A stretch of DNA of 64,000 bases from Octopus vulgaris. Lineage: Eukaryota. Under the pieces are notes generated by a model, which was not told the DNA's origin, did no database searches, and saw only the letters and a list, made by a program, of their open reading frames with translations. The stretch covers positions 4,030,001-4,094,000 of the forward strand of contig OX597833.1 of the NCBI GenBank assembly GCA_951406725.2, read 5' to 3'. Every line of letters begins with the position of its first letter. Within the stretch, counting starts at the first letter, position 1. This document shows positions 26,958 to 62,998 of this stretch, in pieces. The translations under genes and the position numbers were made by a program.

Positions 26958-26971
26958 TCAATGCTTCTTCA
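26958..26971 (-). CDS. Candidate terminal coding exon of the modular EGF/His-Gly gene, (V)KKH*
   Basis: Strong acceptor cttttatttgtttctattttcag; phase-1 reading gives GTG AAG AAG CAT TGA, with ATTAAA about 50 nt downstream. An alternative stop exon is 28715-28758, (G)NEILIRKIKMVLK*. Confidence 0.5.
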
Positions 26972-27772
26972 CTGAAAATAGAAACAAATAAAAGAATATC
27001 AATGATGGTGGAAGAAAAAGCAAACAATCACAGATTTATATATGTATATATATATATATAGATAGATATATAGAGAGATAGATATATATATATTTATATA
27101 TATATAAAAGTGTGTGTATGAAAATCTAAAATGTAATTATTACAGAGTTGTAATTAATAATTAAGAAAAATTGTATGAAAGCCATAGATTACACATTTAA
27201 TGAAAAATCTGTTCAATGGTTAAATTAAAATTGTGTGATTGAAATAAATACAGTTTGTTGGGAAAAGTAAACAACATTTTGTTTTTAACTCTTTTATATA
27301 AATAAATGACAAATTTATATAAATCTTTTTAGATACAAAATTTTATATCGAAATATTCCAGTACGTTACCCCAATATGCTGTAGAAATAATTCATATAAT
27401 CACACACGTATTCTTACTCATCCACTCGTACACGCTTACACACACGCATAGAATCTTGTAAGTTTGATAGATGCAAACTAAACCACGAGTATATGAATAA
27501 CACACATACAAATGGCAAATAAGAGAAAAACATACATGGTACAGAAACCATCAACAGAATTGGGCATATATGTGTGTATAGGTGTATCTATATAAATATG
27601 TGTGTGTGTCTGTATGTATTTGTGTATGTGTTTATACATATATATATATATATATATATATATATATATATATATATATATGTATGTATATGTATATACA
27701 GACATGTATGTTTATAAAATAGCTCTAAGCATCTCGAATTTTCAAGATAAAATAGCTATATTTATTTATTTA

Positions 27773-27909
27773 ATTATTATTATTATTATTATTATTATAA
27801 TTATTATTATCATTATTATTATTATTATAATTATTATTATCATTATTATTATTATTATCATTATTATTATTATTATTATTATTATTATTATTATTATTAT
27901 TATTATTAT
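27773..27909. repeat. (ATT)n microsatellite
   Basis: Direct observation. Confidence 0.95.
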
Positions 27910-30900
27910 GTTATGTTTCTGAATTTCTGTTGCAAGTTTCCTAATGTGAAGTGTGTTGAAACAGATATATATATATTGCCAAATAAACACACGCACTATA
28001 TATATTTGTTCTTCACTCATTTATTACTGTTTTTATTCTCACCCATTATCTGGAAATCTTTCATCACACATCTGTGACCTCTTCAGCGACACTTCCCTCT
28101 TGACTATTCGTGGGTCAAAGGAGTATCCAACATCAACTATATAGCATATGTGGTGCACCTTGTCCACCACCACTAGGTCCTGTCTGTTATGCTCTAGCAC
28201 CTGATGTTTTTGAATTGGAAAATCCCAGACGATTTTGCTATGTGTGTGTGTGTGTGTGTGTGTGTGTGTAAATATATGTGTGGGGGTGTATACATATATA
28301 TATCATATATATATGTATTTATGTTTGTAAATATATGTGTGGGGGTGATATATTTATATATATCATATCATATCGTTATATTATATTTATTATATTACAT
28401 TATATTATATTATATTATATTATATTTATTATATTATATTATATTATTTTATATTTGTTTAAATATTCTTTTAAAAAACAAGTTTAGTTCAGATTTAGAA
28501 TTGTACATTTAATATTTTCTTACATATAATTCACAAGTGGCGTTCAATAAATATAGTTTTAATACAATGATAACATTAATCAATGATAAATTAAGAAACT
28601 GTTAATTATTTTGCCAGAAGTCATATATAAAATTCATTAAGATCCATAATTATAAAGAAATGCTAACAGATTCAATGAATTATTTTTCAGTTTTGTTGTT
28701 TTTTTTTATATATGTCATTTAAGCACCATTTTAATTTTGCGTATTAAAATTTCATTACCTGATACAAGAAAAGAAGATTCAATTAGAAATTAGGAGGTAA
28801 ATTTTTAAAAAATATCAGTTTTACATTACACTTTTCCTGTTTTAAAACCTTTTTCAATGAATTTTTTTCTTCCTTTCTTGAATTTTAAACTTAATATAAG
28901 TTATACTTTACTTGCAACTTTTAACAGAGATTTTTTTTTTTAATGTTTAACGCAGTCTGGTAGGTAGATAAAAGATTTCACAGATGTAGAATTTTTTTTC
29001 CGTGTCTTCTTATTGTTCCATATTTATTTTGTAGTTTGTTCACTTTTATTGTCATTTCTCAGAGGAAAATAAAAAAATTTGACAATTTTAGACAAATTAT
29101 ACGATTATTATAAGATTTATGAAAACATTTACAATCTATGAAAATATTTTAGTGTTTTCAAAATTTATTACTGTTAAACAGTTTAGTAAATTGGTATATT
29201 AAACAGAGTAATTAAACATTAATTAGGTAGTATGAATTAGCAATAATGTTTGATGATGTTTAATAAATTTATTAAGATCATTCTAAGATTGTTACAAATA
29301 GTTTAATCTTAATATATATATATTGTGAAGATGACGTTGACAAGGGTTTCAAATTTCCCCTATCAGCTTAATCATGTGAGAGAGAGAGAGAGATCAAGGA
29401 TCCTGGATAACTGTGATGCAAACGACCCAATCATCTGTAACATCATCTGACTGATCAACCAGTACAGTGGATGCGCAGGCCAACCAGACCACAGCAGGAA
29501 AGGGAACAGGAGCTTTGAACCATTCAAAACAACTGAGTTCATTGCCTTCGGATTTTGTGGAGATGCATAGCTTAGTGGTTAGGGTGCTGGACTCGTGATT
29601 GTTAAACCATGGTTTCGATTCCCAGACTGGGCAAAGCATTGTGTTTTTGAGCAAAACGCTTCATTTCACATCGCTCCCATCCATTGAGCTGGCAAAAAAA
29701 ATGAGTAACCCTGTGACAGACCAGCGTCCTGTCCATGGAGGGATATCTATATGCCAGAAAAACCAGGAAACCAGCCCTAGATTCCTTACAGAGTAATGTG
29801 GACAAACCATTGTCAGACTTAATTGTCTTACACACTCTTTTCACTCAACAAGCTTTGAATGCCAGTGAACAGCAATGACGATACCGGTTTGACAATTCAA
29901 TCTCTTTAACAGTTCAAAATAATGAATTTAATTCCTCTTAATTCTACCTCAGTTCATCTAATTGCATTTATTTATTGCTACTTTTCATTAAAAAAAAGCC
30001 ATTATTCTTTAAATATTCAATGTGCATTTTCGCTTTTTCCTTCTTACTTTCTTCATATCTTTTCCACACATATATATATATATATATATATATATCTTTT
30101 ACTCTCTTTTACTTGTTTCAGTCATTTGACTGCGGCCATGCTGGAGCGCCGCCTTTAGTCGAGCAAATCGACCCCGGGACTTATACTTTGTAAGCCCAGT
30201 ACTTATTCTATCGGTCTCTTTTGCCTAACCGCTAAGTGACGGGGACGTAAACACACCAGCATCGGTTGTCAAACGATGCTAGGGGGACAAACACAGACAC
30301 ACAAACACCCATATACATATATATATATATATATATATATATATATATATATATATATACGATGGGCTTCTTTCAGTTTCCGTCGACCAAATCCACTCAC
30401 AAGGCTTTGGTCGGCCCGAGGCTATAGTAGAAGACACTTGCCCAAGGTGCCACGCAGTGGGACTGAACCCGGAACCATGTGGTTGGTAAGCAAGCTACTT
30501 ACCACACAGCCATTCCTGCGCCTATATATATATATATACGTGTGACAGGCGTCAACAGTTTCCATCTCCCAAATTCACTCCTGCAGTAGTAGTGGTGACC
30601 TCAGGTCTATAGCAGAAGACACTTGCCCAAGATGGGATTGAACCTAAAACCACACGGCTGCCAACCGATCTCCTTCACTACAGAGCAATACAAAGCCAAA
30701 AGAGAGTTGCCTCCCTTTACATTTAGCAGATATCAGCCAAATCTACATAAATTCATGTATTTGTTTTCTTGTGATTTGCCTTGCATTTACTTCGCATCGT
30801 CCTGGCCTTACCCACGATCCCTCATACAATATATATATGTTTGTTTGGGTTTTCGATGTCAATTTGTATATAAAAATAATTCAACATTAAACTCAATATT

Positions 30901-31112
30901 ACGGAGATGTACTTGCATAGCAAGTGATCTGATCTGAGATTGTGTGCTGGAACGAAAACAATTGCAGCGTGGAAGGTGTTTGTAAGCCATTTAAGAAACA
31001 CACAAAAGCCGTTCGATTCACTTCAACATTTAAGTTTAATTTGTGAAAATATTTTCGTCGCTTTAAGACCGCGACCTCTTCACTGACAAAAATCAGGGAT
31101 GCATCAACTTAA

Positions 31113-60945: not shown

Positions 60946-62130
60946 CTGTAAATAACAATTAATTATAGTTGTGTCAAAAAAGAAATTTTATAATAATAAT
61001 AATAATAATAATAATAATAATAATAATAATAATAATAATGATAATAATGCAATACCAGGCAGTGGCTCTCATGGCTTCTCATCTTAACTGATTGGGAGTG
61101 TTATCATTTACATTGTTTTGTCTTGGTATAAAAGATGGGTTACAGCAAATATTCTACTCAATACCACAGAGTTGCTTGTCAGTTGTTTGACCTTAACCAG
61201 TTGAGCATGTCCCTTAGTGGCAGACGATATGTGCATCTCTGATCATGAGCAGAAGTAGTTGGGGAGCATCATAGCCGTGTGTTGAAAGGGAATCTTTGGG
61301 GTTTGGATAATTCACCTTTGGAAATATAGGTGTTTCATTCAATACCTTTAAACAACCCTTATTCAGAGACCTTTTGAGCACGATGGGCTACCCGATCTGG
61401 AGAAAACTCTGACTAGGCCCCACCTGCAATATCACAAACTGTTTATCTAGATACAAGATCACCATGTTGCATACATATGGTTGTGATGCATGTGCCTGGT
61501 GTACCCTTATCAGAAAAGTAGTTATGATAGGCATATTGGGCTCCCTACATTTGAGCACCAGGGTCACTTTGATGGCATGTACTGCTCACTCACTCAGTAA
61601 TAATAATAATAACAAGCTTTCCTAATGTAGGCATAAGGCCAGAAATTTTAAGGGGAATTTTGAACTCAGAATGTAGAGGGTCAGAAGAAATGCTCCTAAA
61701 CATTTTGTGTTGCATGCTAACGATTCTGCCAGCTCACGGCCACTTGGTTGATATTTTTATCTGATCAATCTAAAAGGACGAAAGATAAAATTGAACCTTG
61801 AAGGTATTTAAATTTAGGAAGGTGGTGAGCTGGCAGAAACGTTAGCACGCCGGGTGAAATGCTTGGCGGTATTTCGTCTGCCGTTACGTTCTGAGTTCAA
61901 ATTCCGCCGAGGTCAACTTTGCCTTTCATCCTTTCAGAGTCGATTAAATAAGTACCAGTTACACACTGGGGTCGATATAATCGACTTAATCCATCTGTCT
62001 GTCCTCTCTGTGTTTAGCACCTTGTGGGTAGTTAAAGAAATAGGCATTTAAATTTAGGATGTAAAGAGCAAGAAAAAATGCCACTAAGCATTTTGTCCAC
62101 TGTATTAGAGCGAAAGATTTCAGCACTTAC

Positions 62131-62316
62131 CTCTTTGGTGGCATTTCCGTCCATACCATCCTGTTGTACAACCTCTTATACAATAACCAGTCCGTTTGTT
62201 ACATGGTTCTCTGTTTATACATCGACCACACTTTTTAATTCCTTTGCGGAAGATATAATAGCCATCTGGACATGTCGTTACACGATAACGAGGCTCAGGT
62301 TTTACCACTTTATTTA
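62131..62316 (-). CDS. Modular gene exon 2: basic 7-Cys EGF-like module
   Basis: 186 nt. (V)NKVVKPEPRYRVTTCPDGYYIFRKGIKKCGRCINREPCNKRTGYCIRGCTTGWYGRKCHQR. Confidence 0.9.
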
Positions 62317-62833
62317 CTGTAAATAACAATTAATTATATTTGTGTCAGTAATGAAAATCTAGAAATTAAATATCAAAACAATCTTTATTATCAAATATTG
62401 CTGAAAATCCAAGACTTTGGACTTTGACACAGGATTTCTAACGGTTTGAAAGATGGGAGTATAATATAGGATGTCCTGCCTAGAAATTGAAACCTTGACT
62501 CTCACCCCATTGGTCAACGGAAAGTAGAAAGCAAGGACTTTAGCTTTTGACATTCTTTTGATCTTTTTCATTTATTTGTTTCAGCTGTGGCCATGCTGGG
62601 GACACTGTGGCCATGCTGGGGACATTGTATTGATTATCTCCAGAATATAACTGGTATGTAATTTGTTGAACCTCGGCTGCTCAATACAATGTCAACATTG
62701 TTGCGACTATCTCAGAGCATCAGGAAATATCTATTTAAAGAATTCAAGGCTTTCATTCAGGGCCTCTGCCCTGATGCCTCCTCTCACTGCTTCAACCAAC
62801 AACAATAACAAAACCAGAGATCTGTCTACTCAC

Positions 62834-62998
62834 CTCTTCTTTGGTCACATCTTTGTCCATACCATCCTGTTGTACAACCTCTTATACAATAACCAGTCTG
62901 TTTGTTACATGATTCTCTGTTTATACATCGACCACACCTTTTAATTCCTTTGCCGATGATATAATAGCCATCTGGACATGTCGTTACAACTTTAGTTA
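62834..62998 (-). CDS. Modular gene exon 1 (first within this window): basic 7-Cys EGF-like module
   Basis: 165 nt with an in-frame 24-nt deletion relative to siblings. TKVVTTCPDGYYIIGKGIKRCGRCINRESCNKQTGYCIRGCTTGWYGQRCDQRR. Confidence 0.88.

Follow-up and report, generated by a model that had tools for sequence, protein, structure and literature searches.

Nineteen exons within an intron of the octopus octovafibrin gene: a candidate alternative C-terminus of an egg-tether protein

Gene content of the locus

The window analysed here is a stretch of 64,000 nucleotides from Octopus vulgaris (GenBank assembly GCA_951406725.2, contig OX597833.1, positions 4,030,001–4,094,000; G000:C20:4030001-4094000), the minus strand of which carries a long series of exons for EGF-like cysteine modules. 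This series, hereafter called the tail, lies inside the gene of octovafibrin, which a review names as the protein with EGF repeats in octopus egg tethers (PMC12817120). The next 200 kb past the window were also examined, and window numbering is continued there along the same contig.

A six-frame scan of the window detected, from 32122 to 62998 of the minus strand, 16 cysteine modules; the same 7/8-cysteine motif was absent from each of 20 base shuffles. The 17 exons of the window have AG/GT ends, lengths that are multiples of 3 and a frame open in phase 1, with a total of 3,723 nt; all of them were found where a first-pass annotation, made from the letters of the window alone, had placed them as stop-free exons with both boundaries in phase 1. 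Its count of 16 modules is correct for the window but too low for the array, which has 18, since K1 (66669-66863) and K2 (64023-64205) are situated just beyond the window end. The complete tail thus consists of 19 exons: 12 modules rich in lysine and arginine (K), four tyrosine-rich modules (Y), two exons combining a histidine- and glycine-rich block with a module (HG) and a 48-nt linker.

After K1 and K2 comes an intron reaching past the window end (62999-64000 within the window), and then, in the direction of transcription, K3 (62834-62998), K4 (62131-62316), K5 (60760-60945) and K6 (59366-59557) with seven cysteines each, K7 (57982-58158) and K8 (55462-55629) with eight, and K9 (54412-54600), K10 (53719-53904), K11 (51043-51228) and K12 (49740-49928), again with seven. 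The predicted linker exon follows, most likely at 47676-47629, where the acceptor is weak and the donor strong; it is the least certain of all exons, and our first guess for it, 46359, was discarded as there is no donor there. Further downstream are HG1 (43590-44243; a 171-residue block with 30% Gly, 26% His, 16% Arg and 11% Tyr, plus a module), Y1 (41490-41648), HG2 (38137-38694; a 139-residue block with 36% Gly, 23% His, 15% Tyr and 12% Arg, plus a module), Y2 (37058-37216), Y3 (34851-35009) and Y4 (32122-32283), the Tyr-rich modules having eight cysteines except Y4, which has nine. The succession of K/R modules, linker, His/Gly, Tyr, His/Gly, three Tyr modules and last exon expected from the earlier reading is thereby borne out. 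As a separate observation, the intron between K6 and K7 contains an 815-bp TGG-rich array of 9/36-nt units (58392-59206), several open frames of which would read as poly-Gly, poly-Pro/Lys or poly-His/Asn/Gln.

Upstream of K1 the minus strand carries a 59-nt exon with a stop codon (70283-70341), a typical eight-cysteine module M0 (73881-74027), a C-terminal C-type lectin domain in two exons (75220-76615), 29 EGF exons (77264-120584) and an N-terminal C-type lectin domain, also in two exons (121853-123718). The signal-peptide exon that had been expected past position 64000 has a predicted counterpart 63 kb further upstream, before this lectin–29 EGF–lectin head: a simple scan points to a hydrophobic exon in phase 1 at 126140-126200. 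Phase 1-1 is kept in all 34 internal exons of the head and in all 19 exons of the tail.

Octovafibrin head and its transcript

Octovafibrin of O. bimaculoides (XP_014771937.1) consists of a signal peptide, a lectin domain, 29 EGF repeats and a second lectin domain (PMC10336842). Its published cysteine spacing (5, 10, 16, 25, 27, 36) is reproduced exactly in 28 of the 29 EGF exons, the remaining one having a one-residue insertion. By-eye comparison with the tandem mass spectrometry (MS/MS) peptides in Table S1 of the same paper gave counterparts in the head for 22 of 22, seven of them identical; three cover M0 and four span predicted exon junctions, while the tail has a counterpart for none of the 22. 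Because architecture, EGF cysteine spacing and all peptides agree, the head is, as judged by sequence comparison, the orthologue of this egg-tether protein. The predicted short product has 1,411 residues and a mature mass of 153 kDa; on the published gel octovafibrin runs at 135 kDa (PMC10336842). The lectin domains themselves were recognized with unequal success. The first exon of the C-terminal one gave Atlas matches to Lectin_C clusters at 0.92 (21/30, with the family on 11–24% of members), and the two domains align to each other with an E-value of 5e-15. Pfam found no Lectin_C match in the half-domain exons taken separately, a PDB sequence search with a lectin half returned chance matches only, and a word-based search with the second lectin exon against longer proteins (limit 2,000 residues) gave no match, which is weak evidence. 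One match was obtained when paralogues of the lectin exon were searched for.

Four RNA runs (X1, X5, X6 and X18) were compared with the region 66601-74100; X18 comes from a related organism, and the kind of its library is not on record. In X18, and in this run alone, a 904-nt contig with a depth of 4,840 covers M0 exactly and joins it over a GT-AG intron to the 59-nt exon (70341-70283). Of the two loose ends of this contig one is the end of the lectin exon (75220-75249), while the other contains an exact match to 26942-26971. The stop exon is therefore joined to position 26971, and this message passes over 43 kb and with it the whole set of 19 tail exons. Thus, the tail array sits within an intron of octovafibrin and uses its last exon in common, and the self-contained, undescribed gene proposed in the first-pass annotation is not supported. 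The shared last exon (26764-26971, minus strand) corresponds to 208 letters of the contig, its lower limit being the end of the contig and not a poly(A) site, and its acceptor is the strongest between Y4 and 26971. Since the 59-nt exon supplies one codon and then a stop, the product of the abundant message is the 1,411-residue octovafibrin, with the last exon serving as 3′ untranslated region. The last exon codes for VKKH and a stop ending at 26958 only if splicing reaches it from M0 or one of the tail exons. The VKKH exon suggested earlier is accordingly a transcribed one, though it belongs in common to the upstream gene and is untranslated in the short message. The stop codon of the 59-nt exon lies 54 nt before the last junction, and the contig is abundant nonetheless; a distance of about 54 nt is near the limit for nonsense-mediated decay.

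Read depth over the bin of K1 was zero in X1, X5 and X6 and 6.6 in X18, which is within the intronic cover of that run (intronic contigs have depths of 3–16). In addition, none of the joints listed links M0 to K1, which leaves room for a rare one. X5 contributed a 123-nt piece on M0 at a depth of 3.3. A search of runs with 36900-44400 listed none that is recorded as RNA. Fourteen runs guessed as RNA contained a fraction of 0.20–0.29 of the words from this region, which has 56% interspersed repeat and 20% exon, and this gives no evidence of expression. Two exon-like stretches of 54 and 36 nt with AG/GT ends were noticed by eye on either side of the stop exon (L011 5748-5801 and 6471-6506, minus strand); they are not above background in X18 and could be additional alternative exons. 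In the intron that separates M0 from the stop exon there is a duplicated stretch of ~300 bp with TATA-like motifs (L011 ~6800-7560, by eye), a possible internal promoter as far as its sequence suggests.

Coding state, relatives and splice sites of the tail

Comparison of the tail modules with each other gave a mean ratio of nonsynonymous to synonymous differences per site (pN/pS) of 0.53 over 66 pairs of K/R modules, with pN below pS in 62 of them, and of 0.31 over 15 pairs of Tyr modules, with pN below pS in all 15. Since pN is below pS in nearly all module pairs, the tail exons are coding, and they are intact and under purifying selection. K modules are recent duplications of an exon together with adjoining intron sequence, with copies of up to 1,645 nt that are 93% identical, and their order is partly conserved: K1–K3 correspond to XP_014771587.1 of O. 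bimaculoides, a 227-residue protein named “SCARF1-like”, in 144 of 194 positions (74%), including the seven-cysteine state, as the third module of that species also lacks the second cysteine. This protein is the only close relative found; it is a fragment, both ends of which read like intron, and its name gives no link to octovafibrin. Searches for paralogues of K and Y modules produced 14 and 16 matches, all within this locus, and for HG1 the matches were confined to HG2 and, elsewhere, low-complexity repeats unrelated to it (three of the four other places were inspected). In a module tree of 53 rows and 45 columns, with rough support and 30 of 240 database modules sampled, K modules form one group and Y modules another, and K1 pairs with its O. 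bimaculoides orthologue. These data bear on the idea that the tail is a remnant in decay or in rare use, silenced at the origin of the stop exon. The abundant message does leave the tail out and its splice sites are weak, but not one of the 19 exons has lost its open frame, its phase or its GT-AG boundaries, synonymous sites of the Y modules are saturated while pN is only ~0.25, recently duplicated K modules remain intact, and K1–K3 are kept in a second species, so that we regard such decay as distinctly improbable.

A profile of the module found 1,612 proteins, several of the top ones with MEGF-like names; looking up ten of them gave molluscan proteins in every case (MEGF-like, lectin-bearing, phosphatase or unnamed). 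Pfam EGF_laminin remained under its cut-off, the SCARF1 structure was matched with an E-value of 0.32, and the predicted structure of K4 (predicted local distance difference test score 78.7) found three chains in a fold search with Z of 2.2–2.7, netrin-1 being a weak match (Z 2.7, root-mean-square deviation 5.0, 57 aligned residues). The earlier view of the exons as coding and of a secreted type is supported, and their module is probably MEGF/SCARF-like; the K/R modules are of the EGF-like cysteine type it named, but eight of 12 have seven cysteines instead of eight. The cysteine they lack, the second one, is missing in none of 240 modules from the database matches. Molluscan MEGF6/10/11-like and SCARF1-like proteins and receptor phosphatases appear to share the eight-cysteine module with the tail, and a hydrophobic segment is present in 104 of the top 150 matches, as would suit an ordinary MEGF10/SCARF-like membrane receptor. 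For this locus, however, such a receptor is highly improbable and already largely refuted: in neither the long nor the short model was a hydrophobic segment found (highest 19-residue hydropathy 0.92 after residue 30, in accord with the absence of a transmembrane stretch remarked earlier), and the last exon is known from the spliced contig. The tail also differs from these relatives in its strongly basic character, in the eight modules without second cysteine and in its His-rich blocks; none of the top 150 matches has at least 10 His in 50 residues. An oyster MEGF-like locus (P0005 cluster) has at least 24 annotated isoforms differing by ~50 residues, about one module, and skipping of module exons appears to have a precedent in these oyster members of the family.

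Splice sites of the tail are weaker than those of the head, both for acceptors (7.9 versus 11.9, leave-one-out score, p 0.0007) and for donors (6.4 versus 9.4, p 0.045). Moreover, the motif TGACAC is present at 9 of 12 K acceptors and at none of 34 head acceptors, though the K copies are not independent. Both features fit regulated exons, insofar as sequence can tell. They may also be looked at as an acceptor style of the tail's own, which speaks for the tail as a separate secreted protein without the lectin–EGF head, made from a signal exon spliced to K1 or HG1 or from a nested gene with a small first exon, and having the last exon in common, an arrangement close to the one pictured in the first-pass annotation. 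With phase 1-1 throughout any such join would be in frame; the tail is split off in the O. bimaculoides annotation, and a 135-kDa band without tail peptides is what this arrangement predicts. A separate start was nevertheless not easy to find. An open reading frame scan from the stop exon to K1 and ahead of HG1 gave no convincing signal-peptide exon, and signal-peptide-like frames, sought from M0 to K1 and near the linker, were either weak or within repeats. A hydrophobic stretch ahead of K1 was rejected as a signal peptide, being intron sequence common to other K acceptors, and a jump from the signal exon of the head to K1 would leave out 35 exons. On balance we consider a separate protein unlikely, though deserving serious attention.

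Predicted long form and its possible role in the egg string

As all exons are in phase 1-1, without the stop exon M0 is in frame with K1 and Y4 with the last exon. Skipping of the stop exon would then give a protein of up to 2,781 residues (~310 kDa), or smaller proteins in which only some of the modules are present. The predicted head is neutral (net charge +3), while the predicted 1,370-residue tail has a net charge of +160 and an isoelectric point (pI) of 9.5; its second half contains 24.5% Gly, 15.6% Tyr and 15.4% His. The K modules with seven cysteines would each have an unpaired thiol. A long form would therefore likely combine a cationic tail, His/Gly/Tyr blocks and eight seven-cysteine modules.

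The HG blocks (His 23–26%, Gly 30–36%, Gly+His 56–59%, Arg 12–16%, Ala 0%) invite comparison with hard or sticky materials of other animals. An Atlas search with HG1 found no usable match, and a word-based search with HG2 against longer proteins (limit 2,000 residues) found none, which is weak evidence. GHGLY-type pentapeptides are a motif of squid His-rich beak proteins, and exact GHGLY does not occur in either block. Those proteins likewise have low-complexity blocks of Gly, His and Tyr, for which pH-dependent phase separation is conceivable (PMC11931252, PMC9068888); they are Gly/Ala/His-rich (Gly+Ala+His >50%), hydrophobic and have a pI of ~6 (PMC11931252), whereas the octopus blocks have no Ala, are Arg-rich with a pI of 9.5, and each shares a single exon with the disulfide module to which it is fused. 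It may be supposed that the long form or the tail works in some other tissue that is hard or sticky (beak, radula, lining of the suckers or skin), in place of His-rich beak proteins and suckerins, which were not found in O. bimaculoides (PMC9068888), and the His and Gly content of the blocks is compatible with that. The difference in composition and the fact that the host gene is an egg-case gene make this improbable, and the beak and sucker options of the first-pass annotation lose weight, while the role in egg structure it also listed gains support from the identity of the locus.

EGF repeats of mussel foot protein 2 have six cysteines, and the tail modules, with seven to nine, do not belong to that type. 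In other respects mfp-2, mfp-4 and scallop sbp9 are instructive, since tandem EGF-like repeats are used there in a secreted holdfast, together with a His-rich linker protein in the mussel (PMC12817120); the octopus locus differs by its modules of 7–8 rather than six cysteines and by having the EGF fibre and the His-rich part in one locus. Cuttlefish SepECP1/2, egg-case proteins of cationic and Cys-rich character, form networks with polysaccharide and have antibacterial activity (PMC4500399). They are set apart from the octopus tail by their description as non-repetitive and by another cysteine motif (PMC4500399).

Taking these data together, we think it somewhat probable that the tail exons are a regulated alternative C-terminus of octovafibrin with a role in the egg, likely in cross-linking or hardening of cement or coat. 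A more specific version, which we put forward only tentatively, is that one locus makes both parts of the egg string: with the stop exon included it would give the neutral elastic fibre, and with the stop exon left out a fibre-plus-glue form, the cationic, His-switched, thiol- and tyrosine-bearing tail of which would be the cement protein, tuned by choice among 19 same-phase cassette exons. Octopus cement is reported to combine a mucoprotein of the peripheral gland with an acidic polysaccharide of the central gland, and chorion peroxidase is expressed in the gland (PMC8976471); peripheral granules of the oviducal gland are strongly eosinophilic, and the distal oviduct has a pH of ~5.2 (PMC13336147). 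In such surroundings the head might co-assemble with ordinary octovafibrin via its lectin ends and so tie the tail into the fibre, while K/R modules and Arg-rich blocks would bind acidic polysaccharide through charge. On passage from the acidic oviduct to seawater histidines would lose their charge, so that a material fluid in acid would set in seawater, and unpaired cysteines and tyrosines could then cross-link. An antibacterial action may be a second role of the tail, by analogy with the cationic Cys-rich egg-case proteins of cuttlefish (PMC4500399).

Several observations weigh against an alternative C-terminus with such a role. The sole abundant transcript seen leaves the tail out, although this rests on one contig from one run of a related organism, and neither a transcript with a tail exon (four runs on 66601-74100) nor a tail peptide was seen. 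Threads show one band without tail peptides (PMC10336842). Octovafibrin is described as ovarian, but it is the oviducal gland that makes the cement, and expression at a second site must therefore be assumed. In the O. bimaculoides annotation K1–K3 stand as a separate 227-residue model, though intron sequence seems to make up its ends. Some pairs among the seven youngest K copies have pN close to pS, and the module tree neither shows nor rejects a single origin of the tail modules (approximately unbiased test, p-AU 0.49) and gives them no tie to M0.

While the octovafibrin gene is known, the tail is without description in the literature searched, which left most subscription journals outside. 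The accessible text of the octovafibrin paper has no mention of isoforms, splicing or histidine, nor of the 19-exon tail and the stop exon (PMC10336842). For disulfide-reinforced biomaterials octovafibrin is a model, and it has been described as one protein of 135 kDa. If real, an alternative tail of 1,370 residues, conserved and placed behind a stop exon, would mean that one gene can switch from the elastic fibre to a form that is charged and cross-linkable. The tail is also a concrete candidate for the octopus egg-cement protein, described so far, in the sources available, only as a mucoprotein. Annotation may be corrected as well, part of the tail standing as a “SCARF1-like” fragment in O. 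bimaculoides.

Some other features were noticed in the vicinity. Downstream on the same strand, 11126-11869 is one long open frame, seemingly without introns, in which a Yip1 domain was recognized (E 2e-10). A 27/108-nt tandem array at 21310-21893 has open frames on both strands and, as far as seen, is not part of the gene. Immunoglobulin-domain exons (weak Pfam Ig_3) lie ~185 kb past the window end on the plus strand (L029 4835-5848), in a region that appears duplicated. Finally, an open frame elsewhere in the genome (G000:C6, L055 945-1700) that has a hydrophobic start and numerous GFGDKR repeats is likely a neuropeptide precursor, its repeats presumably resembling octopus achatin-type GFGD peptides.

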